Shown piece after piece: positions 680 through 58,292 of a stretch of DNA of 64,000 nucleotides. The notes under the pieces are model-generated. The model worked only from the letters and a program-made list of their open reading frames with translations. It had not been told where the DNA came from and did no database searches. How positions within the stretch are numbered: the first letter of the stretch is position 1; every line of letters begins with the position of its first letter. Made by a program: the position numbers and the translations under genes. Source of the stretch: Candidatus Iainarchaeum sp. GTDB taxonomy: Archaea > Iainarchaeota > Iainarchaeia > Iainarchaeales > JAGVWC01. The DNA lies in contig JAGVWC010000011.1 in assembly GCA_018304465.1 (NCBI GenBank), positions 1-64,000 of the forward strand. The letters are read 5' to 3'.

Positions 680-2038
680 TCATTGGTTTTTTTTGTTGTT
701 TTCGATAATCCTCCATAAACACTGATCAATTGTTTCTCGAGGGTGGATTTTTGATTCCTCGATTTTCTGTTTTGTTTTGTACGAGATCCGTACAACGGTG
801 TCTTGTCTTCCTTTTTTCTGGGGGGTAGGCATGGGTATATTACAGCCTACCTCATATTTAAGCTTTGTTGTTTCGCCGATGGCTTTATGATCTTGCCCTG
901 TTGGTGCTTCGTAGATTTTGGATAGTTCCACAAAAACGGGCTTCATTTCATCATCCCCGCGTACAGTTCGGTGTTCTTTTTCGCCATCCGACCAAAACGG
1001 TTCGTCTTCGCGGAGCATTGGATTGTTTTCGCGTTTCAACGTGTCGAAATATTGTTCGGCGAATTCTGAAACGGGTATGTTGGAATAGGCCCCTTCTTCG
1101 TTCTTGAATGTCCATCCGAACCAAGTGTTTTTCAGTCCGTATGGCCAGCGAAAAAACCGCGATGCGCAAAGAGAACGGAAATAATGAACGCCTTTGTGTG
1201 GTTTCCATGGAATACCTGATTTTTTGATGGCTTGTTTGAATGTTTTGTTTACTGCCGCGTAGGTTGTCGCGTTCCCGTTTTTGTCACAAAAGAAATAAGC
1301 CTCCGGCCCCTTGTCGTTGTTGGGTGAAACCTTGGCCCATGCTTCCAAGTGTGGTTTGGCCAAAAAACTTATTACGGTTCTGGGTTTTGTTTTGGAAATG
1401 GGTAGCCGGACAACCAAATGGTTTTTTTCCTGTCGCACGTGTTTGTTTTGGATGCTTAAAGCCTCGGATATTCTCGCGCCTGTATCGTTTAACAGTGCAA
1501 GAATGGCGCGGTCTCGAATGGTGTAGCGTTTGCCTTCAACGTAAACCGTTTCCAACAGCTTTTTGATGTGTTGTTGTGTGGTTTGGTTGTCTTCGGGTTC
1601 TTTGTCCGGTTCTTTCGGAACTTCGATGGTTTTTAGCCGTTCGGGGGTTTCTTTTTCCTTCAAACCTTCAACCGATTGAAGTAAACAACGGGCCGCAAAC
1701 ACGTATTTTTCAAGACTGGCGAACTTGATTTCTTTTTTATTGTAGCGTTTTTCGTGAAAAGTAAACCAAGCCAAAAACTCTTGGTCCGTGGCTTTTGCCA
1801 AATCTGTTTTGATAAACAAAGTGATGTTTCGGGCTTCGGAAAGGTTTTTTTCCAAGCTACCGATTCGATACCGGCCTTTTTTCACTTTTTCAATCATGCG
1901 ATTGGCAAAGGCCAATAGGTGTTTTTTGTTTTCAGGACCTATTATTGGGTTTGTTTGAATGTCCTTGATGACGTTTAACACGCGGCGGTTTCGGTGGTGC
2001 GGATCAAAGCCGCTTTTGAATATATCCAGGTCTAGCAT
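680..2038 (-). CDS. Tyrosine recombinase/integrase with a C-terminal extension
   Basis: RDRAILALLNDTGARISEAL (catalytic R), SKTK (K), HYFR (HxxR), FGW and GAY motifs; adjacent to a tRNA. Confidence 0.9.
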   Translation of the reverse strand: MLDLDIFKSGFDPHHRNRRVLNVIKDIQTNPIIGPENKKHLLAFANRMIEKVKKGRYRIGSLEKNLSEARNITLFIKTDLAKATDQEFLAWFTFHEKRYNKKEIKFASLEKYVFAARCLLQSVEGLKEKETPERLKTIEVPKEPDKEPEDNQTTQQHIKKLLETVYVEGKRYTIRDRAILALLNDTGARISEALSIQNKHVRQEKNHLVVRLPISKTKPRTVISFLAKPHLEAWAKVSPNNDKGPEAYFFCDKNGNATTYAAVNKTFKQAIKKSGIPWKPHKGVHYFRSLCASRFFRWPYGLKNTWFGWTFKNEEGAYSNIPVSEFAEQYFDTLKRENNPMLREDEPFWSDGEKEHRTVRGDDEMKPVFVELSKIYEAPTGQDHKAIGETTKLKYEVGCNIPMPTPQKKGRQDTVVRISYKTKQKIEESKIHPRETIDQCLWRIIENNKKNQ

Positions 2039-2110
2039 GGTTTTCCTCCCTATTTACACACGCAGACGTGGGGAAATATTAACTTTACGGATTTGGATTG
2101 GTTGTAGTTG

Positions 2111-2239
2111 CGGACCTAGGCGGATTTGAACCGCCGACCTACTGCTCGCATCAACACGCTGAGTTTCCCCAGGCTTTTTTCAGCAGAAAAAAGGCTGCTG
2201 TAGAAGGCAGTTGCCCTATCCAGACTAGGCTATAGGTCC
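2111..2239 (-). tRNA. tRNA-Arg(TCT) with a 54-nt intron at position 37/38 (intron 2147-2200)
   Basis: Acceptor GGACCTA/TAGGTCC, D arm GCCTAGTCTGGATAGGGC, anticodon stem ACTGC/GCAGT with loop CT-TCT-A|intron|A, T arm GGCGG-TTCAAAT-CCGCC. Relaxed bulge-helix-bulge motif; CCA not encoded. Confidence 0.93.
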
Positions 2240-2297
2240 ATGCTACATTATCCTAGCAAGTACTTTTTTAAATGGTTAATTGTTTCATCCTAGTGTC

Positions 2298-2555
2298 ATG
2301 GCTGAGATCAAGAAAGGACTATACAAGCATTACAAAGGAAAACTATACGAAGTGTTGGGGGAGGCGCGTCACTCCGAGACCCTTGAAAAAATGGTGGTAT
2401 ACAAAGGGTTGTACGATCACCCCGAATACGGAAAAGACACCATGTGGGTTCGGCCCAAGTACGAATTCTTGGAAAAAATCCAGATCGGCGATCGCGTGTA
2501 TCCGAAATACGAGTATCTAAAAAAAAATCCGCGTGAAGACGAGCGATCAAAATGA
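2298..2555 (+). CDS. DUF1653 family protein
   Basis: GLYKHYKGKLYEV...ARHSETLEKMVVYKGLY...WVRP is the family signature. Confidence 0.85.
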   Translation: MAEIKKGLYKHYKGKLYEVLGEARHSETLEKMVVYKGLYDHPEYGKDTMWVRPKYEFLEKIQIGDRVYPKYEYLKKNPREDERSK

Positions 2556-2752
2556 AATGCGTGATTTGCGGATCGTTTGCCACCAATTACAACGAGGCGG
2601 AACAACCCACTTGCAGCCGTCACACCAAGGAAAAAGCCAAAGCCCCCAAATGCCCCGTCTGCAAACACGAAACCGTGCTTCGAACCGGAAAATGGGGTTC
2701 GTTTTGGGGTTGTCGCATGTACCCCAATTGCGTGGGCACCATTAAGATCTAA
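2552..2752 (+). CDS. Small zinc-ribbon protein (topoisomerase C4 zinc-finger-like)
   Basis: CPVC...LRTGKWGSFWGCRMYPNC, plus an N-terminal CxxC...CxxH. Confidence 0.8.
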   Translation: MKCVICGSFATNYNEAEQPTCSRHTKEKAKAPKCPVCKHETVLRTGKWGSFWGCRMYPNCVGTIKI

Positions 2753-3333
2753 TTTGTTGGGTCTTCCAGGGCTTTTTTTATTTTTTGTCGCAGACGCAGT
2801 AAACGAACGCGAATGGTTCCACTTCGCTGACCGGTTTTTTCCGCAAGAAACGTGTTCGGCTGCTCCGGTTCCACTTCGAGTGCCTCAAGATACAACTCGG
2901 CCAATTCCCGATCCGACGGTCGGAGTTTCGCCAATGCCGATCGAATCCGGTTAAAAGCAATGTTATTATCCGGACCGTTCTCCGGTCTTTTCGGAGCTTC
3001 CACGTTTTTCCAGGTATTTTTACCGTCATCGGTCAAATTTTTTTGTCGTCTACGATGGAACGATCGAATCTTATCCTTGCAAATATTTTCAGCCATGCGA
3101 CTCACAAGCCCGGCTACGTTTTTTGAAAAATCAATTCGGTCCATATTTTCCCATAATCGCGACGCGACCTCTTGCGAAATCTCGTCCCATTCCTCCGGGT
3201 TTTGGCGAAAATAGTGCGCTGCGATGCCGCGAACCTGAAATCGGGTTTTTTCCAACGTGGTTAAAAAAGCGGCTTTTGGCGTAGGGTAAACTGGGACGCG
3301 TTTTCTAGAACCCTTTGGCGGTTTACTCGGCAC
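2749..3333 (-). CDS. ECF sigma-70-like protein (regions 2 and 4)
   Basis: Region 2-like WDEISQEVASRLW...LVSRMAENICKDKIR. Region 4-like IRSALAKLRPSDREL...LAEKTGQRSGTIRVRLLRLRQKIK. Confidence 0.75.
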   Translation of the reverse strand: MPSKPPKGSRKRVPVYPTPKAAFLTTLEKTRFQVRGIAAHYFRQNPEEWDEISQEVASRLWENMDRIDFSKNVAGLVSRMAENICKDKIRSFHRRRQKNLTDDGKNTWKNVEAPKRPENGPDNNIAFNRIRSALAKLRPSDRELAELYLEALEVEPEQPNTFLAEKTGQRSGTIRVRLLRLRQKIKKALEDPTN

Positions 3334-3424
3334 GCATTAGTTTTCTTCCGTTTACTTTAAATTTTTGACGGGGACTCTAAAGATATCAACGAAAAACTTG
3401 TATTCAATAATTGCAGGCAATTCC

Positions 3425-3991
3425 ATGGAACTCGAATCCCTTTTTTCGCGCCGTCGAACCATTCGAAAATTCAAACAAAAACAGATTCCCAAAAAAATCC
3501 TTTTTTCGTGCATCGACGCCGGTCGACTCGCTCCTTCCGCGCGTAACCAGCAATCCCTTGAATACGTTCTGGTCACCCGAAACGTGATGAAAGTTTTTTC
3601 TTGCACTAGCTGGGCGACCTATGCTCCGGCCGCGGGCCCCAAACAAGGCGAAGAACCCGCCGCGTTCATCGTCGTTGTTTCAAAACGCAGCGAACAAAAC
3701 GAATATTCGTTGATCGACTGCGGCATTGCCGCGGGACACATTGTCTTGGCCGCGTATTCGCACGGAATCGCAAGCTGTATTCTCGGGTCGATCGATCGGG
3801 ATCAATTATCCGCCGAACTGAATCTGCCCACTGATTACGTTATTCATGTCGTGATCTGTCTTGGATTCGCCGCTCAAAAATCCGTTGTAGACGATTGGAA
3901 ACCCGGAGCGCGGTACTGGGTGGACGAAAAAAACACCGTCCATGTCCCCAAACGAAAATTATCCGAGATTTTGCACGAAGAAAAATTCTGA
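3425..3991 (+). CDS. Nitroreductase family protein
   Basis: RRTIRKF, APSARNQQ, DCGIAAGHIVLAAYSHGIASC. Confidence 0.9.
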   Translation: MELESLFSRRRTIRKFKQKQIPKKILFSCIDAGRLAPSARNQQSLEYVLVTRNVMKVFSCTSWATYAPAAGPKQGEEPAAFIVVVSKRSEQNEYSLIDCGIAAGHIVLAAYSHGIASCILGSIDRDQLSAELNLPTDYVIHVVICLGFAAQKSVVDDWKPGARYWVDEKNTVHVPKRKLSEILHEEKF

Positions 3992-4570
3992 TTACGCCAC
4001 AAAGCTTTTTTTCCGTTCTTTTTCCAATTCCGCCAAAAACAACTGTCGAACCCGGCGCATGCGGGTTTTTGCGGTATTGACGGGCACACTCATGGCGTCC
4101 GCCAGTTCTTTTACCGACGGCAGTTCCGAACCAATCGATCCCAGATACATGCGACCCAAGAATTGTAACCGCGGATCCCACTTTTCAATCGCGTGTTCCA
4201 TCCGGTTAAAAAAATCCCGCTCGAGCAACATGTGCACGGGCGATCGGAACGAAGGCTCCGTAACCGATTCGTTGGGCAATCCCGTGACCGGCCAACGATT
4301 ACGTTTTAACATCATGTTCAATGAAACCCGACGCGCCATCGCGCTCAGGTACTTTTCTTCGTTTTCGATTCCTTTGGACAAATGCGGCCGGCGGGCAAGC
4401 TGGAGAAAAACTTCTTGCACGGCGTCGCGCGCCCATTCGCGGTCATTCAACCGATTCAAGGCGATTTGAAAAATGCGCGGGCCGTATTCCCGATGAATCC
4501 GAAAAAGCCATTCCCCCTGCCGTTTTGCCGCTTTGGGCGGGGTTTTTTTTGAACGAATCGCTTTTGCCAT
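3992..4570 (-). CDS. ECF sigma-70-like protein (regions 2 and 4)
   Basis: YGPRIFQIALNRLNDREWARDAVQEVFLQL...YLSAMARR (region 2) and SVKELADAMSVPVNTAKTRMRRVR (region 4 HTH). Confidence 0.8.
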   Translation of the reverse strand: MAKAIRSKKTPPKAAKRQGEWLFRIHREYGPRIFQIALNRLNDREWARDAVQEVFLQLARRPHLSKGIENEEKYLSAMARRVSLNMMLKRNRWPVTGLPNESVTEPSFRSPVHMLLERDFFNRMEHAIEKWDPRLQFLGRMYLGSIGSELPSVKELADAMSVPVNTAKTRMRRVRQLFLAELEKERKKSFVA

Positions 4571-4636
4571 GGTATCTCCGTTTTGGAAAAAAAGGGCCTT
4601 TTAGTTTAAATATTCATTGATGCTTGGATAAAAATA

Positions 4637-5050
4637 ATGCTTCCACGCATGTTTGTCGCCATGAAGGCGTTTGTCGAATACAACGGAAAAATCCTGCTGT
4701 TACGGGAAGGGGCAAAAAGCCCAAGCGCCGGAAAATTCGGAGTTCCCGGCGGTCGCGTGGAACCCGGAGAACACTTTTTGGACTGCTTACACCGCGAACT
4801 AATCGAAGAAACCGGACTCAACATCGAAATCGAAAAACCGTTTTTTGTCGGAGAATGGCGGCCCGTGGTGCGCGGCGAACAATGGCATATCGTCGGAACT
4901 TTTTTTTCCTGCAAAGCGTCTTCGATGAACGTGACGCTTGATTCCGAACACGACCGGTTCGTCTGGATCAATCCGCTGGAATACAAAAAATTCGCGATCA
5001 TGCCGCCCGAAGACGAGGCATTCAAGGCCTACATCGCTCAAAAACGCTGA
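4637..5050 (+). CDS. NUDIX hydrolase
   Basis: Nudix box GGRVEPGEHFLDCLHRELIEETGL. Confidence 0.92.
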   Translation: MLPRMFVAMKAFVEYNGKILLLREGAKSPSAGKFGVPGGRVEPGEHFLDCLHRELIEETGLNIEIEKPFFVGEWRPVVRGEQWHIVGTFFSCKASSMNVTLDSEHDRFVWINPLEYKKFAIMPPEDEAFKAYIAQKR

Positions 5051-5109
5051 CCGATCCAATTCTTAGGCTTTTTAAACCTTTTTTGGTTTTATTCGTTGGT
5101 CGTTTAACC

Positions 5110-6828
5110 ATGGATTACAAAAAAAATATTGCATTGGCCTTGTCTAAACAATTATTGCCGCTTGGACTGACCCCGGACAAAATCACGGCTTTGCTTGAAA
5201 CTCCGCCCAAACCCGACATGGGCAACGTGTCTTTTCCGTGTTTTGTCATCGCGCGTGAACTCAAGCGCAGCCCGATGGAAATCGCCAAAGATCTTGAAGG
5301 AAAAATGGGGCCGATTAACGGGGTCCAAAAAGTAGCGGCCATCGGGGGTTACGTGAATTTTTTCGTTGACACCCAAAAACAAAGCACCGCGGTGTTATCC
5401 GCGATCCTAAAGGAAAAAAAATTCTTCGGACGCCAAAAACAACCCAAAAAAATCCGCGTCATGATCGAATATTCGGGTCCGAACACCAACAAACCCCTGC
5501 ACATCGGCCACTTGCGAAACAACACCCTCGGAATGGCGTTATCCAACCTGCATGAAAACCTCGGGTTTGACGTTATCAAAGCCAACATCGTCAATGACCG
5601 CGGCGTCCACATCTGCAAAAGCATGCTCGCATACCAGTTGTTTGGAACCGGAGTCACTCCGAAATCCGAAATGAAAAAATCCGATCACCTGGTCGGGGAT
5701 TTTTACGTGAAATTCGCCCAAGAATCCGAACAAAACCCCGCGCTCGCCCTGCAGGTGCAAACCATGCTGCAACAATGGGAAAACAACGATCCGAAAGTGC
5801 GAGCGCTTTGGAAAAAAATGAGCAAATGGGCCTTGGACGGATTCAAGGAAACCTACAAGCGATACGGAACCGAATTTGACGTGTGGTTTTTCGAATCCGA
5901 ATTCTACAACAAAGCGAAACCCATTCTTGACGCGGGTTTGAAAAAAGGCGTTTTTGAAAAACGCGAAGACGGCGCAATCGTTGCCAAACTGAATCAATTC
6001 GGTTTGCCCGAAAAAGTCGTGCTTCGAAGCGACGGCACTTCGATTTACATCACCCAGGATCTCGCCTTGACCGTGCACAAATTCGAGGAATACAAATTAA
6101 ACGAAGCGATCTGGGTTGTCGCCACCGAACAAAACCTTTACTTTGAACAATTATTCAAAATATTCGAACTGCTGGAATATCCCTGGGTTAAAAACTGTCA
6201 TCACGTCAGCTACGGGCTCGTGCATTTGCCCGAAGGCCGGATGAAAAGCCGCGAAGGAAAAGTCGTGGACGCCGACGATCTCTTAAACGATCTGGAAAAA
6301 CTATCCGAAGAAGAAATCCAAAAACGGTATCCCGACATTGCTTCGGTGGACAAGAAAAAACGCGCAAAAGCGATCGCGCTTGCGGCCATCAAATTTTTCA
6401 TGCTCAAGTTCGACGCCAAAAAAGATTTCGTTTTCAATCCCAAGGAAAGCCTTTCGTTTGAAGGCGAAACCGGTCCCTATCTGTTGTACTCGTACGCGCG
6501 CGCCAAAAGCATTCTTCGAAAAGCGCGGCCCAAGGAACAAGTGTATCAATTCGGACTGCTATTGCATCCCCTGGAACACGCCTTGATCCGCTTGCTGGAA
6601 GCCTATCCGAAAAAGCTGTCCGAAACCCACCGCCAATTGTCTTTGCACGTTTTGTGTCATTATCTGATCGGTCTTGCCGCGGCATTCAATTCGTTTTATC
6701 ACGAAGTCCCCGTGCTATCCGCCGATGAAGAAACCAAAAACGCGCGATTGGGACTTGTTTTGGCGACCGCAACGGTTTTATCCAACGGACTGGAATTGTT
6801 AGGCATCCACCCGCTTGAAAAAATGTAG
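5110..6828 (+). CDS. argS: Arginine--tRNA ligase
   Basis: EYSGPNTNKPLHIGHLRN (HIGH), GRMKSREG, and the DALR anticodon domain GETGPYLLYSYAR. Confidence 0.97.
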   Translation: MDYKKNIALALSKQLLPLGLTPDKITALLETPPKPDMGNVSFPCFVIARELKRSPMEIAKDLEGKMGPINGVQKVAAIGGYVNFFVDTQKQSTAVLSAILKEKKFFGRQKQPKKIRVMIEYSGPNTNKPLHIGHLRNNTLGMALSNLHENLGFDVIKANIVNDRGVHICKSMLAYQLFGTGVTPKSEMKKSDHLVGDFYVKFAQESEQNPALALQVQTMLQQWENNDPKVRALWKKMSKWALDGFKETYKRYGTEFDVWFFESEFYNKAKPILDAGLKKGVFEKREDGAIVAKLNQFGLPEKVVLRSDGTSIYITQDLALTVHKFEEYKLNEAIWVVATEQNLYFEQLFKIFELLEYPWVKNCHHVSYGLVHLPEGRMKSREGKVVDADDLLNDLEKLSEEEIQKRYPDIASVDKKKRAKAIALAAIKFFMLKFDAKKDFVFNPKESLSFEGETGPYLLYSYARAKSILRKARPKEQVYQFGLLLHPLEHALIRLLEAYPKKLSETHRQLSLHVLCHYLIGLAAAFNSFYHEVPVLSADEETKNARLGLVLATATVLSNGLELLGIHPLEKM

Positions 6829-6906
6829 AAACCAAAGCCAAACCCCCTTTTGGGTTCTTTTTCTATATAATATAACTATAAAAATGTAATAAAGTACAAT
6901 ATTCAA

Positions 6907-8598
6907 ATGGTCACTGGTCTTTCCAGTAACGCGATGATTCAATCGGTCTATTTGGCGATGGAAGCCGCCGGCACCAAATCCAACAAACCGCTTCTCAAAA
7001 AAGCCTTTGATTTCTCCATGTTTGCCCACGCCGGACAAAAACGTCTTTCCGGAGAACCCTACTGGATTCATCCCGCCAATGTAGCGTTGATTCTGGCCAA
7101 AATCGGAGCGGATTCCGACACCGTCGCGGCGTCGCTTTTGCACGATACGCTCGAAGACACCCGGGTCACCAAAAAACAAATCCGAAAAGAATTCGGAAAA
7201 ACCGTTCTACGCCTTGTCGACGGCGTCACCAAACTCGATCGCGTGGCCGAACTCGGAAAAAAACACAACACGGCCCTGAATGTACAGCGCGTCATGCTTG
7301 CGGGTTCCAAAGATTGGCGCGTGCTCATCATCAAACTCGCGGATCGATTGCATAACCTGGACACGCTGCAGTACCTGCCGGTTTCGGACCAGCGCAGAAT
7401 CGCGACCGAATCGCTTGCCGTGCACGCTCCGATCGCTCACAAACTCGGTTTGCAGGAACTGATGGACGAAATCGAAGAAAGCGCGTTCAAACGACTTCAA
7501 CCCGACGTGTACGAATCCACCCAAAAAAAAATCCTGCGCGAAGCAAAAACCCGCGAAAAAACGCTCCAAAAAATGACATCGGCCCTCAAAAAAACGCTTC
7601 CGAAAAAAACGCGTTTTTCCTTGTTTTCCAAAAGCACGTACAAAATGTACGTCAAACACGTGACCACGCGAAAAGATATCGGGTCTTTTTCGGATGTCGT
7701 GGTCTTATGCATCCAGCCGAATTCGATTGGAGAATGCTATGAAGTCCTCGGAAAAATCCATCAATTGTATCCGCCCGTGCCGAAAAAAATCAAGGATTTC
7801 ATCGCGATTCCGCAACCCAATCTGTATTCTGGAATTCACACGACCGTTATCGGCCCCGACGGCCGGCCCGTCAAGATTTACATCGGAACCCAAAAAATAT
7901 TCGACTTAAACAACCGCGGCGTGCTCGCATTGGACGACGAAGCCTACAAACTATTCCCACTGATCCGAAACCGCGTGGAACACCTGAACAAATTGTTCAC
8001 GTTGCCCAAGCATTTCTCCGAAGCCACGGAATTCATGAATGCCATGAGCCGTGATTTCGCGCCGAAAACCATTATCGTGTTCACGACCAAAGGCGAAACC
8101 GTGGAACTACCGCTCGGTTCGACTCCAATCGATTTCATTTTTTACCTGCGACCCGAAGACGGCCGCCGGTTATGGAAAGCCAAAGTCAACGGAAGCTTTG
8201 TTCCCCTCGATTATCCCCTCGAAGCCGGTGACATCATCGAAATATTGCTCTCCAAACACAAGCAATTCAGCAAAAAATGGCTTTCGATGGCCAACACTCA
8301 AATGGCCAAAACTCGGATCAATTCCATTTCCAAAAAACCCGGTGCGGACCGAAACATCGACATCACGGTGTGGGCCGACGACATGATCGGATTGCTATCG
8401 CTTTTAACCAACGCGTTTTCCAAAGCCGGAATCAACGTGCTTGCGACGACTTCGCTTACTACCAACAAAAAAAACGTCACGCATTTCAATTTGGGTGATG
8501 TTCCGGACAAAAAATTGTCCATTGCGCTTCAAGAACTCCAAAAAATCCCTTCCGTCAAAAAAATAAAAATAATAAACTTAAACGAGGTAACGGGTTAA
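6907..8598 (+). CDS. Long RelA/SpoT homologue (HD hydrolase, degenerate synthetase, TGS, ACT)
   Basis: HAGQKRLSGEPYWIHP, LLHDTLEDT, IKLADRLHN; TGS domain VFTTKGETVELPLGSTPIDF; C-terminal ACT domain DDMIGLLSLLTNAFS. Confidence 0.9.
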   Translation: MVTGLSSNAMIQSVYLAMEAAGTKSNKPLLKKAFDFSMFAHAGQKRLSGEPYWIHPANVALILAKIGADSDTVAASLLHDTLEDTRVTKKQIRKEFGKTVLRLVDGVTKLDRVAELGKKHNTALNVQRVMLAGSKDWRVLIIKLADRLHNLDTLQYLPVSDQRRIATESLAVHAPIAHKLGLQELMDEIEESAFKRLQPDVYESTQKKILREAKTREKTLQKMTSALKKTLPKKTRFSLFSKSTYKMYVKHVTTRKDIGSFSDVVVLCIQPNSIGECYEVLGKIHQLYPPVPKKIKDFIAIPQPNLYSGIHTTVIGPDGRPVKIYIGTQKIFDLNNRGVLALDDEAYKLFPLIRNRVEHLNKLFTLPKHFSEATEFMNAMSRDFAPKTIIVFTTKGETVELPLGSTPIDFIFYLRPEDGRRLWKAKVNGSFVPLDYPLEAGDIIEILLSKHKQFSKKWLSMANTQMAKTRINSISKKPGADRNIDITVWADDMIGLLSLLTNAFSKAGINVLATTSLTTNKKNVTHFNLGDVPDKKLSIALQELQKIPSVKKIKIINLNEVTG

Positions 8599-8694
8599 TG
8601 GAAAAACCCTTTTTCGACACGTTTAAGAAACTTTTCCCGCGCTTTATGTACACTTCGCATAATGCTCGATTTATCAAATACTCAGGGTTTACTC

Positions 8695-9075
8695 ATGAGA
8701 ATCGACTTTGAAAAACTGGATGGATTGGTTCCTGTCATTGCCCAGGATTACAAAACCGGAAAAGTCCTTCAATTGGCATTCATGAACCAGGAAGCCTGGG
8801 AAAAAACCCTTGCCGAAAAAAAAGCGTGTTATTTTAGCCGTAGCCGGAACAAACTCTGGACCAAAGGCGAATCCTCCGGTCACTTTCAGATCGTCAAAGA
8901 AATCCTGGTCGATTGCGACAATGACAGCATTTTACTTAAAGTCAAGCAAATCGGAAAAGCCGCGTGCCACGACGGTTACGCGAGTTGTTTTTACAAAAAA
9001 ATCGAAAAAGGAAAAGAAACCATCGTGGAAGAAAAAGTATTCGACCCGAACAAGGTTTACGGGGAAAAAAAATGA
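8695..9075 (+). CDS. hisI: Phosphoribosyl-AMP cyclohydrolase
   Basis: [38 protein letters not shown]. Confidence 0.95.
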
Positions 9076-45678: not shown

Positions 45679-47148
45679 TCACTTTTGGATCCGCGCCAAA
45701 CCATGATGCGCCCGCAAGTCGATTTTGTCGCCGTTTTGAATGATCTTGGTTCCCACTTTGGTGCCGACAATACACGGAATTCCAAGTTCCCGCGAAATAA
45801 TCGCGGCGTGACACGTGATCCCCCCGTCATCCGTAATGATTCCCACGGTTTTTTTTAGCATGGGAACGAATTCGGGAGACGTCATTCCCGTGACCAGAAT
45901 CTCGCCTGGTTGCAATTGTCCCAAATCCCGCGCGGATCGAATCACCCGTGCGATTCCGGAAACGGTTCCCGGTGATGCGCATAACCCCGCGACTTCGTTT
46001 TGCGTTACCACGCTTTTTTGCCACAATTTTTCCTCGGCCAAAACCGCTTCTTTTCCCGTCAGCACTTGAAACGGATAAACATTGTAATTTACAAAACAAT
46101 GTTCTCGACGCGCTTCTAATGTTTGTCGGGAAATTTTTCCTTGTGCAAAATCGGTCAATTCGAAAGAAAAAAGATATTTGGCCACATCCGAATCGATTCC
46201 GCGTCTACGCGCGAGTTCTTTAAGCAATCGTCCCACTGAAAAAAATCCTTTCATCTGGGTTTTTTTTCGATCGTCGTACAGGATCGAAACTTTTTTTGCC
46301 AACTCGAAAAAAAACAGGGCTTTGGAGGAAAAAAGGTATTTTGAAATCAACCGATTTTGTTCGGCTTGCGATTCTTTTTTTTGTTTTTCAATCGCACGAA
46401 GTCTTTCGGTCGGATTTTCTTTTGCATTCAAAGCGGATTCGATCAGTGATTCCAGATTATTCCAACCCAATCCCGAAAAAGAAAAGTAATTACAAGGCGT
46501 CCAATAAAATTTTTCGAGATGCGCTTCCATCAACGGTCTGATTTGCGCGTCTTTTCGCCAATTCTTATTTGGGGTTTGTCGATTCGCGATGACCGCGCTG
46601 ATTTGAAGAACGCTTTTTTCCGCCGCGCGGGAAAAAGAATCGTCTGTGGGCATGGAAAGCGCGGAAATAATCGTCGAAATTTCTTTCGATGGGATTTTTT
46701 GCGCGGAAAGATCCTCGGAGAGAAGTCCCGGAAGCGAAAAATCAATCAACTCGCCAAACGGTCCGAGATCCCACAACGGCTGGTAAACATTGAAAAATTT
46801 TCGGATTGATTCGATAATTTCTTGCGTTGAAAGAAGACCCACACGTTTTGGCAGCAGGGAATCGCAATAATCCTCGTTCAATTTGCAAATATATCGGAAT
46901 AATTCGAAAAGCGAATTCGCGTATTGCGGGTTTTTTTCCAGTCGATCCGCCAACATCCGTCCCGCCGCAATCAATTCATCCTCGTCAAACAGCCAACGGA
47001 TCTCGTCGTGACTGCACGCGAGTTTGTTCAAGCCATAGCCTTTCGGAACAAACCGCCTAAGTCCGTGATCCAGGTCGTCTCCGATGTTAAGGGTGGAATG
47101 AAACGCGAAAAACAAAGCGCCTTGGCGGCGCTGCTCGATCAAACGCAT
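45679..47148 (-). CDS. Helical N-domain plus C-terminal PEP-utilising phospho-His swivel domain, paralogue 1
   Basis: GLCASPG...ILVTGMTSPEFVP...[21 protein letters not shown]. Confidence 0.88.
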   Translation of the reverse strand: MRLIEQRRQGALFFAFHSTLNIGDDLDHGLRRFVPKGYGLNKLACSHDEIRWLFDEDELIAAGRMLADRLEKNPQYANSLFELFRYICKLNEDYCDSLLPKRVGLLSTQEIIESIRKFFNVYQPLWDLGPFGELIDFSLPGLLSEDLSAQKIPSKEISTIISALSMPTDDSFSRAAEKSVLQISAVIANRQTPNKNWRKDAQIRPLMEAHLEKFYWTPCNYFSFSGLGWNNLESLIESALNAKENPTERLRAIEKQKKESQAEQNRLISKYLFSSKALFFFELAKKVSILYDDRKKTQMKGFFSVGRLLKELARRRGIDSDVAKYLFSFELTDFAQGKISRQTLEARREHCFVNYNVYPFQVLTGKEAVLAEEKLWQKSVVTQNEVAGLCASPGTVSGIARVIRSARDLGQLQPGEILVTGMTSPEFVPMLKKTVGIITDDGGITCHAAIISRELGIPCIVGTKVGTKIIQNGDKIDLRAHHGLARIQK

Positions 47149-47350: not shown

Positions 47351-48391
47351 ATGCGATCCGAACAATGGATAAAATACTTGGCGGGAAACCAAAGCATGTT
47401 CCTTTGCACGTTACTTGGAAAAGTGTTCACGCAAACGCTCAAAACCGAATTCGGAGCCGGACCCAAACGAATCCGTTTTTTCTTTCACACAGGATTGACC
47501 ACGGGCTTTGTGGTCCAAAAAGAAATGATTTCATTCGGAAAACTCTTGTCCCGAAAAATCGAAAAAAATCCGCGCCAAATAACCCGATGGACGCGGCAAT
47601 TATCCCGACAAATCGATTTCTTGCGAAAACAACTGCTGTCATTCCACGGGAAAAGAATGACTAAGGCGGAATTTGAAAAAATTTGCCTTGAAACCGAACA
47701 ATTCTACGCGCATCTCGTGCCCGTGATGCAAGTCGCGGATTACTTGCCGTCATCCACCCTGAAAAAAATGCTTCCAAAACTCGAAAAAGCCCGAAAATAT
47801 TCGGAATCGGTTCAAAGCGAAATCGAAGGGTTTTTCGAGCACTGGGCTGAAAAAGAAAACAAATACAGTCACTTTCCCACGGCTTTTTTTTTGAGTCAAA
47901 CCGAAAAAGAACTCTTACAATATTTCAAAACTCATCGGTTTTTGTCCCGCTTGAAACTCGAACACCGGTGTTCTTGCAGCGCGCTGGATTTTTCCAACGG
48001 AAAATACGTATTGTTTCCCAAAACCTACGCCGAAAAACTCGAAGAAAAAACACGTTTATCTCGATCCGACTCGTTTGTCATCGGACAAACCGCTTACCCG
48101 GGAAAAGTCATCGGAACCTGCCGACGCGTACTCCATCCCGCGGACTCCACCCGCTTTGACGAAGGGGATATTTTGGTCACGCAAATGACCAAACCCGAAT
48201 ACTTGCCGATGATTCGAAAAGCAGGCGCGATCGTGACCGACGCCGGCGGATTATTGTCGCACGCCGGAATCATTTGCCGAGAACTCAAAAAACCATCCGT
48301 CATCGGAACCGACAAAGCCACCTTGGTGTTTAAAACCGGCGAAAAACTGCACGTGGACGCGACCAAAGGAATCGTTCGAAAAATTTTATGA
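47351..48391 (+). CDS. Phospho-His swivel domain protein, paralogue 2 (shorter N-domain)
   Basis: GQTAYPG...ILVTQMTKPEY...TDAGGLLSHAGIICRELKKP. Confidence 0.88.
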   Translation: MRSEQWIKYLAGNQSMFLCTLLGKVFTQTLKTEFGAGPKRIRFFFHTGLTTGFVVQKEMISFGKLLSRKIEKNPRQITRWTRQLSRQIDFLRKQLLSFHGKRMTKAEFEKICLETEQFYAHLVPVMQVADYLPSSTLKKMLPKLEKARKYSESVQSEIEGFFEHWAEKENKYSHFPTAFFLSQTEKELLQYFKTHRFLSRLKLEHRCSCSALDFSNGKYVLFPKTYAEKLEEKTRLSRSDSFVIGQTAYPGKVIGTCRRVLHPADSTRFDEGDILVTQMTKPEYLPMIRKAGAIVTDAGGLLSHAGIICRELKKPSVIGTDKATLVFKTGEKLHVDATKGIVRKIL

Positions 48392-49858
48392 AAAAATACG
48401 GACGATTCCGTGATTTGTACGAAGCTCGATGAGCGTACCGTCCTTAATCACTTGGGTTGCAATCCGAGTGCCGATAATGCACGGAATATTAAGCTCGCGG
48501 CTAATAATGGCCGCGTGACTCGTGATTCCTCCTTCGTTGGTCACTATTCCACGGGCTTTTTTCATTAATGGCACAAACTCTGGGCGCGTCATGCTTGTCA
48601 CTAATATTTCTCCTTCATTGAAAGGGTCCGATGGTTTTTTGACGACCCGGGCAATTCCTTTGGCTTCACCGGCGCAAGCAGTAATACCTTGCAGAGACTG
48701 AATGTTTTCCAAATTAGCTTTGGGCATTAGACGTTCCCGCAATTGCTCGTAGACGCTTCCGCTCAGGGTCCAGAATCGTTGGTCCTTATTGCCAATCTGA
48801 ACGCAACCTTTCATGCGCTGACGCCATTCTTCGATTGGAACACTTTTGCCGTCCAGCAGGTCTAATAGTTCGGAAGGAGTTGTGAATTGCAGGATCTCAA
48901 ATTTAATACCTGTTTTTTCACTCGTTTTATGCAAGAAGAGATTGAGATAATGGCACGCGATAAGTGTCGCACGTTTGCGTTGATCATGCCAATATCCGAT
49001 CAATGAAATCCAATGGAGAAGCTTTTGAGAATCTGGATCGAGTTTTAAATTCAGTTCCTCGCGTTTTTGCTTAAGCATTTTTTCCTGATGCAAAAGAGCA
49101 AAAATTTCTTTTTCTATTTCTTCGATTGTTCGTTTAGATTCGATTCGGGCATTTTCGAAAAAAACGGTTAATTGAATCGGTTCGGTATATTTGTAATTGT
49201 TTTGAATCCAAAAAAAATTCTTTTGATGCTCAACTACTAAACGGTAAATTGAGGGATTTTCTTTCTGCAGCTCTTGAAGCGTTTTGGGATTACTGCTCTT
49301 AAGCTGCCGAGCGATCAGTAACAGGCTCAATTTTTCTTCGCCCAAAAACGTCCCGTACATGGGTGCCATGGCTTCTCGAATTTGTGTCTGTAGTAAAGGG
49401 TATTTTTCGAGCAAAAGTGAAACCATATATTCTGTGCCGGTATAGAAATATTCGACCAATAATGAGGGGGTGAACAGCGACAGGTATACATCCGTGAATT
49501 CTTCATAGTCTTTTTTCAGGTCCGTTATTGCACGCGAAGAAAAACTGTTCACATACGCATAATATTCTTTTTGGCGTTTTTGCCACAAAGCATACATGCG
49601 CTCCAGAATTGAATAATCCGCCAAAATGCGCTTGTATTGCCTTTCGGCAAAATGCTCCGGCAGTATCCAGTCGCTCTCGTCCCCATTTTTCGAGTAAAAT
49701 GTTGTATATATTTCAAATCCAAATCCAGGACAAATCTTCTCGAGTTCGAAACTGGCTCCTGCAATCGAAAAATAGTTCAGATGTGGCACAATTGTGGCTG
49801 AATACACGCCCCACTTCTCTGAAGGTGAGATTAATTCCCAAAATGAATCATCAGTCAA
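48386..49858 (-). CDS. Phospho-His swivel domain protein, paralogue 3
   Basis: [13 protein letters not shown]...[21 protein letters not shown]. Confidence 0.88.
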   Translation of the reverse strand: MTDDSFWELISPSEKWGVYSATIVPHLNYFSIAGASFELEKICPGFGFEIYTTFYSKNGDESDWILPEHFAERQYKRILADYSILERMYALWQKRQKEYYAYVNSFSSRAITDLKKDYEEFTDVYLSLFTPSLLVEYFYTGTEYMVSLLLEKYPLLQTQIREAMAPMYGTFLGEEKLSLLLIARQLKSSNPKTLQELQKENPSIYRLVVEHQKNFFWIQNNYKYTEPIQLTVFFENARIESKRTIEEIEKEIFALLHQEKMLKQKREELNLKLDPDSQKLLHWISLIGYWHDQRKRATLIACHYLNLFLHKTSEKTGIKFEILQFTTPSELLDLLDGKSVPIEEWRQRMKGCVQIGNKDQRFWTLSGSVYEQLRERLMPKANLENIQSLQGITACAGEAKGIARVVKKPSDPFNEGEILVTSMTRPEFVPLMKKARGIVTNEGGITSHAAIISRELNIPCIIGTRIATQVIKDGTLIELRTNHGIVRIFS

Positions 49859-53740: not shown

Positions 53741-53928
53741 ACAAATTCCCTTTTCTCGATCACGTTGGAGTTATTTTCGTCGGCGATCATGGCTACGACT
53801 TTTCTCTGAATCCGATATTCTGCCATGAGAGATACCTGTCTTTCCCGCTGCATATAACGTCATACGAGTTACCCTTCGGTCTTTTCGGTTCTGATTCTGC
53901 CAAAGGTTGAACGAGGTCGTCTAGGCAT
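53737..53928 (-). pseudogene. Possible degraded small basic-leader gene
   Basis: The frame reads [61 protein letters not shown] and overlaps both neighbours. Confidence 0.3.
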
Positions 53929-55360
53929 TGAATTTACCCCTTTTCTCCAATACCACGATTTGTCCGTGATTCGCTTTTACTTGAACGATCCAACCATCTT
54001 TAAGAACTTTAGTAGCGCTCTTGGTCCCGATCACACAAGGTATTCCGAGTTCTCTTGAAACAATGGCCGCATGGCTTGTGATCCCGCCTTCGTCAGTGAC
54101 GATCGCAACGGCTTTTCGCATCGCAGGAACGAATTCCGGTCGCGTCATCGATGTAACCAATACTTCGCCGTCTTTCATCGAACCAATCGACGACACCGTG
54201 GTGAGTACCCGAACCGGTCCTGTCGCAGTTCCCAAAGACGCGCATTGCCCATAAAGCGTTTCCAGATCATCATGCTTGGAATGAAATTGCTGGTCAAAAA
54301 ACTCGGCATCGGCTTGGTCCAGGAACGTCGTTTGGTTGCCCAGTTTCACATAAAGACATTTTTTTTGGCGTTTTTTTGATTTTTTCTGAAGAGAACCGTT
54401 TCGAATCGATTGAAGAGAAATTTCCCAGGGCAACACGTAATCCAGATCTCTTTTCGGAATCGAATACCTGCGTGCCAACTCGTCTTGGAATTTGGCAAGC
54501 AAGCACACACCTCTTAAAATTTCCCGTTTTCGCTGATCCTGCCAATCCGTCAAAAAATCAATCCATTCGACGATATTTCGTTGCTTAACCGAAAAATCCA
54601 GTTTCGTCATGACCTTGGTTTTTTCGGTTTGAATTTTTTTCGCATCCGGTGTTTTTACTTCGGGAATTTTTTCGGCGGTGGACAAAATCTCTTCTTTGGT
54701 CCATTGTTTGGGACCCGCGTATCCTCCGTCCGCCCAGAAAAACGTCTTCAGAAACCGGTCTACCCGCTCCGAACGCTTTTTTCCCTTGGAGATCCGAATG
54801 TCAAACAACGCTTGGTCTCGCAGCAAGGCAAAAGAAGGTTTGGTGGGGGTTGTCAGATTCACAAAATAAAGATTCACGTTTTCCGGAACGGTTTTTTCTT
54901 TGATGCCGTGTCGCAAATCGCGCTCAAGACGGATTGAGATGCTCTCGATTAAATGCGCAATTCCGATCACGGCATTGATATGGCGGCCCACGAACTCCAA
55001 CCGATCGAATAATTCTTCTTCGGAAAATTTTGACAAGTCTTTTTCAAGCAGGCCATTCGAAAAAAACCATCTCACTTCGGCAGCCCATTTTTTTCTTTGT
55101 TTTTCCAGGTATTTCGGATCCTTTGTCAGTTCTTTTTCGATCCGATCGGAATTGCGCTCGAGGTCAGCTAATCCATAATTGGCTTCCACGTAATCAATTT
55201 TGAAAAAAAAGAAGAAATCGGTATAGGTGAACCCCAGACCGTTTTTCATGTGATCGAACGGCTCTTCAATGTATCCGAACGGAACGATGAAAAACGGTTT
55301 TCCTGGAGTGGCCCCGGTGTACCACTTACGTGCCAGCATGCGATTAATGATTGGATTCAA
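53921..55360 (-). CDS. Phospho-His swivel domain protein, paralogue 5
   Basis: TTG start overlaps the upstream TGA and gives MNPIIN, matching the MNP- starts of paralogues 4 and 7; [21 protein letters not shown]. Confidence 0.87.
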
Positions 55361-56832
55361 CGATCGTCCCCCACCTTGCGGATAATTCCGTGATTCGCGT
55401 TCACTTCGATCAAATCGCCCGTCTGAATCGCCTTGGTGGCGTTTCCCGTGCCGATAACACACGGTTTTCCGAGTTCTCGCGAAATAATCGCGGCGTGACA
55501 CGTGATCCCTCCCAGTTCGGTAACGATCGCGCCCGCTTTTTTCATCGCGGGAACAAATTCAACCGAAGTCATCGTCGTGATCAATACTTCGCCGGCTTTG
55601 AAAAGAGAAATTTCCCTCGAATTTAAGAGCACCCGCGCGCGACCAACAAAAATCCCCGGTGACGCCGCGGTTCCTTTCATCACCTGATGCTCAAAATCTG
55701 TTTTTTTCGATATTTTTTTTTCAAGATCCGCGATTTCGCTTTCCGAAAGAAAACGATACGCTCCGTTTTCCACAATAAACGCGCTTTTTTCGATTCGCTT
55801 GGACAACTCCGCGGCTTTCGGCCCGTCTCCGCGAATAATGTTTTGCAGTTCCGAAACCGTCGCGTAATGCAGTTCCCGTTCAGAAATGTTTCGCCGCTTT
55901 CCGATTTCTTCAAGCAAACGGCCAAATCCGACATTCGCGATCGAAATCCGCTCTTTTTTCAAGTCGCCATACAAAAAAGCGATTTGCCGGATATTTTCAA
56001 AAAGAATCTCCAATTCAAGCGGAAGATTCGTCCGATTTTGGATTTCGCGCAGCCGTTTCGACGCGTTTTCCTCCAGATGCTCAAAGTCAAAAATCCGTTT
56101 TTTTCGCTCCGAAACCGGAATCGCCTGCAAGCAGTCCAATTCTTCGTGCACCATTTTTTCGTCCAGAATGGGGCCGTAGTAATCATAGGTTAGAAAATAA
56201 AACCGTTTGGCGTGAAGCCGAATCGCTTCTTTTTTTCGATCCTCTTCTTTGATCAACGAAATCGCCAAAAGGCTTTCTTCGGCGCGCGCGACAAAACTTT
56301 TATGAACCGGGTTGGCCAAGACCGAAAAAATTTCCGCGATTTCCGATTTCTTGAAATTCTTGTTTTCTTTGGCCAAAAAAACGGCTAAACGGTCCTGTAC
56401 CAACTGGTGTCCGCGAATCTCCAGCGAAAAATTCGCGGGTTCCGTCCAATACTCGGACTCGATGTAAATCCGAACTGCTTCGTTGAAAAGCGTTTCCAAA
56501 TCCGCGTCCGAAAAATTTTCCAAGCGTTCATTCAATACCGCGGGATCGATCAGTTCCAGCAATTGTTTTGCGTTTCGTAAAAAGTTGTTGCGCAACGGCT
56601 CAATGATTCCTCTTTGATGGGACAATCGCTCGACAACTGCGTTGGCCACGGTTTCCATTTGGTCCGGCAGCCAATACCACGTGCTCTGCCCGTTTTCAAT
56701 CAAACAAAAAAAACCCGAAAACGCCATGGGGACGCCAAGCGAACGATCCATCGTCTGGTTGTAGGATGACGCCATGACTCCCGTTGGAAAAGGCGGCGCG
56801 GAACTCGAATACACTTTGACAAGATTCTCCAT
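55357..56832 (-). CDS. Phospho-His swivel domain protein, paralogue 6
   Basis: GTAASPG...[10 protein letters not shown]...[21 protein letters not shown]. Confidence 0.88.
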
Positions 56833-56834
56833 GA

Positions 56835-58292
56835 CTAGTTCGCCTTAACCTTGCGCACGTACCCGTGATTCGCGTTGACCTCAACCAAGTCCCCGTCTTG
56901 AAAAGTTTTGGTCGCGACTTGCGTTCCGATGATGCATGGAATTCCCAGTTCGCGGCTTACGATCGCGGCGTGGCTGGTGATGCCGCCTTCGTCGGTCACG
57001 ATTGCGGAGGCTTTTTTCATCAAGGGGACGAATTCGGGTCTTGTCATTCCCGTCATCAAAACGTCGCCTTCGCGAAACTTCGAAAACGCGTTGATGTTAA
57101 GAATAATCTTCGCGGGTCCCGTTGCTTTTCCAAGCGACGCCACGGCGCCATACACGGTTTCTTGCCCCGAAAACGACCGCTCGATCCGATCGAACAATTC
57201 GGCGGCTTGGTTGGTTTCCACCAAATAATCGCCGGGTTGATCGAGCTCGATCAGCCAAACGCCTTGTTTCACCCGCATTTTCAAGGTCTCCAAAAGGTTT
57301 GGATCGCCTTCGACAAAGGCTTTGTATTCCAAAAAAGGAATCACGAAATCGCTTTCAAACATCGGGATGCCTTTTTTTTCGGCAATGCCGTGAAAAAAAC
57401 CAATGACCCCCCAATTGGCGATGTTGGTGAATTTTTTGCGAACATCGCGAAAAAACGCCAGGTCCGCGAATTGCTGAATCCGCGCACGCGTTTGTTCGTC
57501 AAAACCGTATTTTTCAATAATCTTTTTTTTCTTGTCTTTCAATTCTTTCCAAAACGCGTTTTGGTGTTTTTCGGATAGCCGGGCAAAGAAAAAATCTTCT
57601 CCAAGCACCGTTGCGGTCTGGTAATTGTTTTCGATCCACCAGAAATTTTTCTGATGCGCCGAAAGCATTTCCGAAACTGCGTCCGAAAGTTGCTTTCCGT
57701 CTTTTTCAAATTGCTGCTGGATTTTTTCAAACGATTTTTGTTCTTCCCACAAAAAAGTCGTGTCCGGCAACAGCAAGGTCTGCAGATCCGCCGCGCTCAC
57801 TTCGGACAACCGATTTCCGAAGATGTACTTTAGAATTTCTTTTTCGAACGGATCGAACAAATCAATGAAAAGCGAACACGCCCAGCGTTTGAATTCCTGA
57901 TCGAGAAATTTTCCGAATTCGTCCACGCATTTTTGCTGGGTTTTTTCGGAAAAATTCTTTCCAAGTTCAGCGACTCCAAAAGACCGTTCTTCCAGTCCTT
58001 TCCCAAACCCGTTGTGACGCTTGAGTTGTTGTTTTACCCACGAAGGGTTTTTGGTCATTTTTTCCAGCAACTGCAGTACCAGTCGCTTGCCATGGTCAAT
58101 GGGCCAATACATGAACGCGGATTGGATCGGGCTTACGTATACCGCTGTGTTAAGCAGCCAGATTCCGTCCGAAAGATCCGAATACCTAGGCAAAGACAAG
58201 GTGGCTGCCGGCAGCATGATCGTAATGGTCAACGAAGGCGCGCTTTGCTTGTAGTAGGAACGGCGGGCGATTTTCTCCAATTCAGGATTCAT
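56835..58292 (-). CDS. Phospho-His swivel domain protein, paralogue 7
   Basis: GAVASLG...[10 protein letters not shown]...[21 protein letters not shown]. Confidence 0.88.
   Translation of the reverse strand: MNPELEKIARRSYYKQSAPSLTITIMLPAATLSLPRYSDLSDGIWLLNTAVYVSPIQSAFMYWPIDHGKRLVLQLLEKMTKNPSWVKQQLKRHNGFGKGLEERSFGVAELGKNFSEKTQQKCVDEFGKFLDQEFKRWACSLFIDLFDPFEKEILKYIFGNRLSEVSAADLQTLLLPDTTFLWEEQKSFEKIQQQFEKDGKQLSDAVSEMLSAHQKNFWWIENNYQTATVLGEDFFFARLSEKHQNAFWKELKDKKKKIIEKYGFDEQTRARIQQFADLAFFRDVRKKFTNIANWGVIGFFHGIAEKKGIPMFESDFVIPFLEYKAFVEGDPNLLETLKMRVKQGVWLIELDQPGDYLVETNQAAELFDRIERSFSGQETVYGAVASLGKATGPAKIILNINAFSKFREGDVLMTGMTRPEFVPLMKKASAIVTDEGGITSHAAIVSRELGIPCIIGTQVATKTFQDGDLVEVNANHGYVRKVKAN

Follow-up and report, generated by a model that had tools for sequence, protein, structure and literature searches.

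Two neighbouring genes in an archaeal chromosome, which we call sig1 and sig2, encode intact and very divergent members of the extracytoplasmic function (ECF, group 4) branch of the sigma-70 family. They lie on the reverse strand of the window, the 64,000-base stretch of DNA analysed here (bases 1-64,000 of contig C7, which is 151,756 bases long), and belong to a genome assembled into 15 contigs of 1,246,008 bases in all (completeness 91.9%, contamination 0.41%). Initiation of transcription in archaea is generally attributed to TBP, TFB and TFE alone. We find nevertheless that sig1 and sig2 are native chromosomal genes of a DPANN archaeon of Woesearchaeota-like affiliation that has an archaeal RNA polymerase only, and we favour, with a probability of about 0.55, the reading that both proteins are gene-specific transcription regulators inside this archaeon. 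The original prediction, made from the sequence alone, had placed two sigma-like genes encoding about 190 residues each between positions 2749 and 4570; both open reading frames (ORFs) are intact there, sig1 (2749-3333) encoding 194 residues from a GTG start and sig2 (3992-4570) encoding 192 residues from an ATG start.

Profile searches assign both proteins to the sigma-70 family. Pfam Sigma70_r2 (PF04542) matched sig1 at 26.7 bits (E 4.8e-6, residues 33-91) and sig2 at 32.8 bits (E 6.2e-8, residues 27-92), above the 24-bit cut-off in each case, and in the search of the genome's reading frames the same family scored 28.7 and 35.6 bits, respectively. The NCBIfam model TIGR02937 (sigma70-ECF) matched sig1 at 65.1 bits against a cut-off of 42.9, aligning residues 27-189 with positions 7-165 of a 165-position profile, and its alignments extend through region 4 in sig1 and sig2 alike. 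All remaining NCBIfam matches were to ECF sigma subfamilies, far below their own cut-offs, and weak Sigma70_r4_2 and HTH_30 matches fall within residues 152-184 of sig2. Regions 1.1 and 3 are absent, Sigma70_r3 had no match anywhere in the genome, and the length of both proteins fits the ECF range of about 170-220 residues. Both proteins had been predicted to carry region 2 and a region 4 helix-turn-helix. The hidden Markov model search suggested at the time bears out region 2 in sig1 and sig2; region 4 draws its support from TIGR02937, the structure models and the structure searches, with the Pfam region 4 models below cut-off or without a match.

The two proteins, already described as divergent in the original prediction, are very dissimilar: BLASTP aligned them with 31% identity over 65 residues of region 4 only (E 0.001). 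In an exhaustive HMMER search of 1.84 billion representatives, sig2 matched 427 proteins at E ≤ 0.001. Among the 150 matches listed, and leaving a fragment of the same gene aside, the full-length relatives were 21-36% identical to sig2 (E 9e-10 or weaker); most were 150-250 residues long and aligned over nearly the whole query, and identity reached at most 28-35%, except for one match of 43% over 68 residues. A word-index homologue search returned only the proteins' own clusters and one 105-residue fragment 89% identical to sig2, and a direct sequence search of the PDB with sig1 or sig2 returned nothing at E ≤ 0.01. The solved ECF sigma factors were reached only by a profile of sig2 relatives, not by single sequences: the profile of alignment A1, consisting of sig2 and its 102 nearest relatives, matched AlgU, SigW, sigma-E, SigH, SigL, SigK and CnrH in the PDB at E about 1e-50. 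It also scored sig1 at 62.3 bits over residues 20-191. Glutamine 52 of sig2, in region 2, is nearly invariant in this alignment.

Structure prediction yielded the same architecture for both proteins: the N-terminal tail has no structure, sigma2 is helical, sigma4 consists of four helices, and the two domains are joined by some 18 linker residues modelled with low confidence. The AlphaFold2 models had a mean predicted local distance difference test score (pLDDT) of 89.8 for sig2 and 87.8 for sig1, with sigma4 above 90, and were built from input alignments consisting largely of ECF sigma factors, so that the ECF fold is partly built in. In sig1 the Lys/Arg/Pro-rich tail (residues 1-18, 3280-3333, reverse strand as for all domains of both proteins), which is translated only if the GTG start is used, is non-helical and has lower pLDDT in its first 10-residue block; sigma2 (residues 19-102, 3028-3279) forms three long helices (19-41, 46-62 and 73-102), and sigma4 with its helix-turn-helix (residues 121-190, 2764-2973) forms helices 121-135, 139-154, 159-167 and 171-190. 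In sig2 the corresponding tail (residues 1-12, 4535-4570) has a first-block pLDDT of 59, and no helix is predicted before residue 13; sigma2 (residues 13-92, 4295-4534) contains a D-x-x-Q-E-x-F motif and helices 13-41, 44-60, 62-66 and 71-92, and sigma4 with its helix-turn-helix (residues 111-191, 3998-4240) contains helices 111-129, 133-144, 153-160 and 164-191.

Foldseek searches of the PDB with these models returned ECF sigma factors throughout at E ≤ 0.001 (14 for sig2, of which 13 were listed, and 13 for sig1). Template modelling (TM) scores over whole chains were low, at 0.3-0.45, because the sigma2 and sigma4 domains are oriented differently. The sigma2 domain of the sig2 model, compared with the sigma2-only chains 2map, 4lup and 2o7g (region 2 of sigma-E and SigC), gave TM scores of 0.67-0.73 by target with root-mean-square deviations of 2.7-3.7 Å; the sigma region 2 fold on which the original prediction turned is, in the case of sig2, matched by solved sigma2 chains.

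The genome that carries these genes is archaeal. It encodes a TBP with two repeats (88.9 and 84.1 bits) and a TFB with two cyclin repeats (89.9 and 62.7 bits), families that exceeded their cut-offs only in the 4 archaea among 14 control genomes. Rpb1_1 has one locus only, immediately after the Rpo2 gene, where an open frame of 893 codons reads as Rpo1N, and no bacterial alpha subunit C-terminal domain (alpha-CTD) scored above cut-off in the genome. Bacterial-type ECF sigma-like genes thus do occur, as had been proposed, in an archaeon with TBP, TFB and an archaeal-only RNA polymerase. The archaeal intron-containing tRNA expected some 500 bp away proved to be a tRNA-Arg(UCU) gene at 2110-2239 on the reverse strand, 510 bp from sig1, with a 54-nucleotide intron adjoining the anticodon. 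Rfam recognised it at 55.3 bits with a 56-nucleotide insert in the anticodon arm, and ARAGORN in intron mode reported tRNA-Arg(TCT) with a 54-nucleotide intron, having missed it with default settings. Intron mode also found one further tRNA with an intron on C7, and about twelve others across the genome, a few of which are implausible.

The contig itself is sound. In tetranucleotide composition it correlates at 0.996 with the remainder of the genome, and the sigma region (2700-4600) correlates at 0.929, compared with a median of 0.916 for 300 random windows of 1900 bases. At least part of the locus is present in 12 public metagenome runs, of which four were mapped; runs X5-X9 contain 26-90% of its words, and at groundwater or soil sites the organism attains a depth of about 10x. 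Logan contigs of 5,192 bases in run X1 and of 7,779 bases in runs X2 and X3 cover 2110-7301 and 2110-9000, respectively, and in run X5, which comes from a different study, contigs cover 2110-2393, 2490-3023 and 2998-6885; all show zero differences, and the assembly may have been made from X1-X3. The DNA is therefore continuous from the tRNA, across sig1 and sig2, into the arginyl-tRNA synthetase (ArgRS) gene. The original prediction had singled out the interval 2100-5200 for confirmation of read continuity, and the run contigs span it from 2110 through both genes, the sole break in the graph being at 2110-2139, the 3' end of the tRNA. Its other concern, that the contig might be chimeric or bacterial, is answered by the composition, the intron-bearing tRNAs and the contigs of the four runs. 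ArgRS (5083-6828, forward strand) has its nearest named relatives in Candidatus Woesearchaeota metagenome-assembled genomes (45-47% identity) and in two metagenome-assembled genomes labelled Methanosarcinales (46-48%), and on the strength of the former we regard the organism as a Woesearchaeota-like DPANN archaeon. The next named relatives of ArgRS are Bacteroidota bacteria, at 35-39% identity, which hints that this housekeeping gene, too, may be of bacterial origin.

We next consider which parts of the proteins are retained. When 17 archaeal ECF-like proteins were aligned with 62 representatives, the glutamine of region 2 hardly varied. The archaeal rows retain an acidic residue three positions before it, and most archaeal copies retain a region 4 recognition helix resembling P-x-G-T-V-K-x-R. 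This retention of core motifs points to selection acting on sigma2 and sigma4 alike. The Lys/Arg/Pro-rich N-terminal extensions noted at the outset are real in sig1 and sig2 and recur in other archaeal copies. Across residues 2-21, the 25 non-identical archaeal ECF-like ORFs of up to 340 residues average 6.3 Lys + Arg, 2.6 Pro and 1.0 Asp + Glu, and 17 of the 25 have at least six Lys + Arg; 135 of the nearest sig2 representatives, which are only presumed to be mostly bacterial, average 2.5, 0.96 and 3.4, and eight of them reach six Lys + Arg. ORFs of at least 250 residues from the same genome average 3.0 Lys + Arg and 0.97 Pro, with six or more Lys + Arg in 76 of 682. The statistic takes for each protein the start that gives the longest ORF and comes from related, non-independent genomes; duplicates, ORFs longer than 340 residues, ORFs running off the end of a locus and matches lacking the sigma2 part were left out. 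Judged from these sequences, the basic tail is an extra feature common to archaeal copies and not peculiar to this locus.

No anti-sigma gene was found beside either gene, in agreement with the original prediction. No co-directional gene lies downstream of sig1 or sig2; the genes found there are convergent and unrelated, encoding a small Top1-type zinc-ribbon protein (Zn_ribbon_Top1, 2552-2752, forward strand), which overlaps sig1 by 4 bases, and a member of the Nitroreductase family (3365-3991, forward strand), which abuts sig2 and for which we prefer the in-frame ATG at 3425 over the TTG at 3365 given in the ORF list. Across the 91.9% complete genome, a search limited to the zf-HC2 class of anti-sigma proteins returned nothing at E ≤ 0.1. 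An adjacent anti-sigma gene is common but not obligatory in ECF systems. Upstream, the divergent intergenic region between sig1 and the nitroreductase gene (3334-3424) contains an A/T-only, TATA-like run at 3356-3366, 23-33 nucleotides before the sig1 GTG, and that between sig2 and the NUDIX hydrolase gene (4571-4636) contains a TATA-like run at 4605-4614, 35-44 nucleotides before the sig2 ATG and 23-32 nucleotides before the NUDIX ATG. GGAG is found 6-9 nucleotides before the sig2 ATG. The A/T-only runs would be compatible with archaeal promoters.

Genes of this kind are found elsewhere in the phylum. Sigma70_r2 scored above cut-off in 42 of 215 phylum genomes, among them G018 and G032, each of which is a single contig, and 24 of 79 genera are represented; among the controls it did so in 10 of 10 bacteria and in none of 4 archaea. 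TIGR02937 exceeded its cut-off in 34 of the 151 genomes of the order and had matches at E ≤ 0.001 in 123 of them, but all 4 archaeal controls also matched at that level, so that the weak, region-4-type matches are unspecific. The source genome has four sigma-like ORFs, namely sig1, sig2 and two on contig C6. The first of these two (L001, 1237-2331) encodes 364 residues; its N-terminal part is long and basic, and its region 2 is of the FliA/WhiG-like type (Sigma70_r2 52.8 bits). The second (L046, 2127-3083) encodes 318 residues and is matched weakly by TIGR02937, at 35.2 bits. In relatives the number of matches rises to as many as seven. The genes sig1 and sig2 belong to a fast-evolving, multi-copy set of sigma-like genes that is patchy across the archaeal order. 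At five related archaeal loci no sigma-like ORF was found within up to 6 kb on each side of ArgRS, and at same-family loci with sigma-like genes the only one of the window's neighbours to appear is a weak NUDIX match. In one same-family relative (G002:C20:4543-5985), two same-strand TIGR02937 matches of 52.3 and 45.8 bits lie about 400 bases apart; the ECF profile did not re-detect this pair.

Phylogeny was limited to a quick tree with long branches, in which 55 of 76 inner branches are unsupported. Fifteen of the 17 archaeal rows, sig1 included, fall together with two representatives on one side of a branch with a Shimodaira-Hasegawa-like approximate likelihood ratio test (SH-aLRT) value of 95%, and sig2 pairs with the representative P0006 (98%), apart from the sig1 group. 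P0006 bears the same type of tail. Because the representatives were picked for likeness to sig2, the placement of sig2 is biased, and the tree supports no claim about donors or the number of transfers.

The remaining neighbours of the sigma genes are diverse. The leftmost of those listed here is a tyrosine-recombinase integrase gene (680-2038, reverse strand), which lies where the contig begins and immediately 3' of the tRNA-Arg(UCU) gene with its intron. The contigs of the four runs break at 2110-2139, and word depth is lower to the left of the tRNA than to its right (5.3 versus 9.9 in X1; 8.6 versus 11.2 in X2). We take this to reflect a probable integrated element, left of the tRNA, that only some members of the population carry; the sigma genes are outside it. 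A gene for a DUF1653 protein (2280-2555, forward strand) follows the tRNA, and the NUDIX hydrolase gene (4637-5050, forward strand) is divergent from sig2. The NUDIX protein matches PDC-S07, a candidate defence family of PADLOC, at E 6.3e-17. For sig1 and sig2 themselves, PADLOC gave no defence-model match save one marginal Cas3d hit at E 7e-4, and a defence context was set aside, the PADLOC matches being only marginal or unspecific. Both proteins match PHROG 1740, 'RNA polymerase sigma factor', at E 8.8e-13 and 1e-7.

Beyond ArgRS, a long RelA/SpoT homologue of bacterial type (6907-8598, forward strand; HD_4, RelA_SpoT, TGS and ACT domains) lies 2.3 kb from sig2, and a second RelA/SpoT copy is found at G000:C6:145864-146193. 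A link between RelA/SpoT and the sigma genes was considered and dropped: RelA_SpoT exceeds its cut-off in 161 of 215 genomes versus 42 of 215 for Sigma70_r2, with no specific co-occurrence. Alarmone enzymes are thus near-standard in the phylum and far commoner than sigma genes. Further along the window, five paralogues of 489-526 residues are encoded on the reverse strand (45679-47148, 48386-49858, 53921-55501, 55357-56832 and 56835-58307); their sole Pfam match is a C-terminal PEP-utilizers mobile domain, and the first 400 or so residues match no family. A 955-residue ORF (59100-61967, reverse strand) matched no Pfam family at E ≤ 1e-5. On C6, the 364-residue sigma-like gene stands beside an ORF resembling replication factor C (L001, 6-1280) and the 318-residue one beside a 773-residue ATPase-like ORF (L046, 3085-5406); each of these neighbours appears, from its sequence, to carry an intein-like insertion.

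How might such proteins work in this cell? Because the organism has only an archaeal RNA polymerase together with TBP and TFB, sig1 and sig2 most likely act within the archaeon. On the reading we prefer, the lineage would have been acquired from Bacteria long ago, and both genes would now be transcribed from archaeal TATA-type promoters. The helix-turn-helix of sigma4 would bind a DNA motif, sigma2 would bind promoter-proximal DNA or else grip the coiled-coil of the Rpo1N clamp, to which the beta-prime clamp helices of bacteria are homologous, and the basic tail would add non-specific contacts to nucleic acid. Two functions had been offered originally: a repurposed regulator, which fits the evidence as far as the sequences go, and an effector acting on a bacterial cell, which gained no support from any result (no search for a signal peptide or secretion genes was made). 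The genes look native, and they are widespread and present in multiple copies in the order. If the archaeal enzyme were indeed contacted, the interface between sigma2 and the clamp would work across domains of life, and archaeal gene control would gain a new layer.

A bolder version of this idea, which we regard as a long shot, is that sig1 and sig2 are sigma factors adapted to the archaeal RNA polymerase. Sigma2 would sit on the clamp coiled-coil of Rpo1N, the site used by TFE and Spt4/5, which hardly varies in this order, sigma4 and the tail would hold promoter DNA, and a sigma-type factor, with TFB or in its place, would start or strongly modulate transcription of a subset of genes in Woesearchaeales. 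If true, this would amount to a hybrid bacterial-archaeal initiation pathway. We modelled residues 1-400 of Rpo1N (alignment A2, 24 rows) in complex with residues 1-105 of sig2 (alignment A1), and the resulting score of 0.00, against a mark of 0.32 and with no controls folded alongside, weighs neither way.

Several observations weigh against the preferred reading. The proposed mechanism is drawn from domain architecture, and one of its two domains is poorly captured by Pfam: Sigma70_r4_2 scores sig2 at 15.8 bits, below the 25.7-bit cut-off, and had no match to sig1 in the Pfam scan. The TIGR02937 score of sig2 (37.4 bits; residues 27-176 on profile positions 8-159) is likewise below the cut-off of 42.9. 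To these may be added the ECF bias of the AlphaFold2 input and the limits of the tail comparison described above. In 173 of the 215 phylum genomes Sigma70_r2 was not above cut-off, and the genes are therefore not essential to the lineage. Finally, single-protein searches with sig1 and sig2 in 40 relatives, of which 3 belong to the same family and 37 to the same order, came back empty at E ≤ 0.001. Rpo1N, by comparison, shows 55-77% identity over its first 400 residues in these 40 genomes, and its clamp coiled-coil barely differs among 24 aligned sequences. Set against so conserved a polymerase, the sigma-like genes therefore turn over very fast. Such turnover is unusual for a core regulator and could indicate an accessory, conflict-related or dispensable role.

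The most serious alternative, in our view a clear minority prospect, is that the proteins keep the sigma fold and make no contact with polymerase, serving as plain helix-turn-helix repressors or activators or as modules for partner switching or sequestration, the latter exemplified in bacteria by the response regulator PhyR and its sigma-like domain. Region 4 is the only part in which BLASTP finds sig1 and sig2 alike, a PhyR sigma-like/ECF cluster is among the Atlas structural look-alikes, and with neither a zf-HC2 anti-sigma nor a bacterial core enzyme a classical sigma circuit cannot exist. However, most archaeal copies keep the region 2 core, including the nearly invariant glutamine, which in bacterial sigma factors is part of the surface contacting the beta-prime coiled-coil, and this would be unexpected if only the helix-turn-helix mattered; moreover, proteins of about 190 residues leave sig1 and sig2 with no fused receiver or signalling domain. 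It is also unlikely, though conceivable, that the genes are accessory cargo of viruses or mobile elements, or conflict genes, whose products would divert or protect transcription in infected cells in the way that bacterial sigma factors encoded by phages or associated with defence do. Very fast turnover and a patchy, multi-copy distribution would suit such a role, as would the PHROG 1740 matches of both proteins, the PDC-S07 match of the neighbouring NUDIX protein, and the presence of an integrase and a tRNA attachment site 0.5-2 kb away. Yet that integrase is beyond the tRNA, at its 3' end, and the drop in depth and the breaks are to the left of 2110 and not around the sigma genes, whose region is of native composition; a PHROG sigma match is expected for any member of the sigma-70 family, and PADLOC yields only the marginal Cas3d match (E 7e-4).

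We consider it very unlikely that sig1 and sig2 are decaying remnants of an old transfer with no present function. While the absence of a detectable orthologue in 40 relatives and the low family scores might suggest decay, both ORFs are intact with no internal stops, their two-domain AlphaFold2 models are confident, most archaeal copies preserve the core motifs of sigma2 and sigma4, and a small, densely packed genome would be expected to lose dead genes. Delivery of the proteins as effectors into a bacterial host or prey cell, where they would reprogramme the core RNA polymerase, strikes us as highly improbable. The complete sigma2 and sigma4 architecture is what binding to a bacterial core requires, and the Arg/Lys-rich tail may recall cell-penetrating or targeting peptides, but nothing pointing to export turned up (no signal peptide or secretion search was made), the neighbours are housekeeping-type genes, and known DPANN hosts are mostly archaea. 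Four sigma-like genes in this genome, and up to seven matches in relatives, also fit internal regulation better. As for an artefact, that is, a bacterial contig or chimeric join binned into an archaeal genome, the bacterial-looking genes at the locus (the sigma genes, the long RelA/SpoT homologue, and ArgRS with its 39% identity to Bacteroidota) would speak for it. One intron-bearing tRNA is 510 bp away and a second is on the same 151,756-base contig, the tetranucleotide correlation is 0.996, contigs of the runs span tRNA, sigma genes and ArgRS (X1-X3) or sig1 to ArgRS (X5) with no differences, Sigma70_r2 is found in G018 and G032, two single-contig genomes from this order, and mis-binning was ruled out by Castelle et al. 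(2021, PMC8204110) for their own set. The artefact reading is largely refuted, and we find it scarcely credible.

In summary, the locus supplies two intact, compositionally native examples of sigma-type proteins on a well-supported contig. Complete sigma-type proteins in archaea without a bacterial polymerase have been known for more than a decade. What the locus adds is the basic tail specific to archaeal copies, and the very fast turnover of the genes beside a highly conserved polymerase clamp.

The phenomenon itself is in print, and the locus is a further example of it. A 2018 review credits Rinke et al. (2013) with the first description of archaeal sigma factors. Castelle et al. (2021, Front Microbiol, PMC8204110) report sigma-70 genes ('fam00359') in DPANN, mainly in Woesearchaeota. 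The genomes concerned also encode TBP, TFB and TFE; mis-binning was excluded, and the authors found no anti-sigma factor. The original prediction had treated sigma-70 genes lacking an anti-sigma partner in such an archaeon as highly unusual, a view that these published passages do not sustain. No functional study of archaeal sigma-type proteins was found in the literature searched by full text. Compared by description, the fam00359 genes share with sig1 and sig2 an archaeal host, TBP and TFB, the exclusion of mis-binning and the lack of an anti-sigma (PMC8204110); the basic tail and the very fast divergence of sig1 and sig2 are not mentioned in the relevant passages of that paper or of the 2018 review.

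Among better-studied proteins, the closest are the bacterial ECF (group 4) sigma factors, such as AlgU of P. aeruginosa, SigW of B. subtilis, sigma-E of E. coli, and SigH, SigL and SigE of M. tuberculosis. These provide the best profile and fold matches of sig1 and sig2, which resemble them in consisting of sigma2 and sigma4 in about 190 residues, in lacking regions 1.1 and 3, and in having a D-x-x-Q-E motif and, in the models, a region 4 helix-turn-helix. Unlike the bacterial factors, sig1 and sig2 belong to a genome with no bacterial core RNA polymerase and no zf-HC2 anti-sigma, stand behind A/T-rich upstream regions of archaeal type, and carry a basic tail that is rare (8/135) among the nearest representatives. 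More distant likenesses are to the PhyR sigma-like domain, a cluster of which with ECF proteins is among the Atlas structural look-alikes, to the RpoE-like sigma of type III-E CRISPR systems, whose family CAS_III-E_sigma weakly matches sig1 (E 3.4e-4), and to MzaA of MZA defence, which weakly matches the third sigma-like ORF, on C6 (E 1.3e-5); both of the latter matches are far below the family cut-offs. Having no receiver domain, and with no CRISPR or MZA neighbours at the locus, sig1 and sig2 differ from these three systems, in which the ECF fold has been reused beyond ordinary promoter selection.

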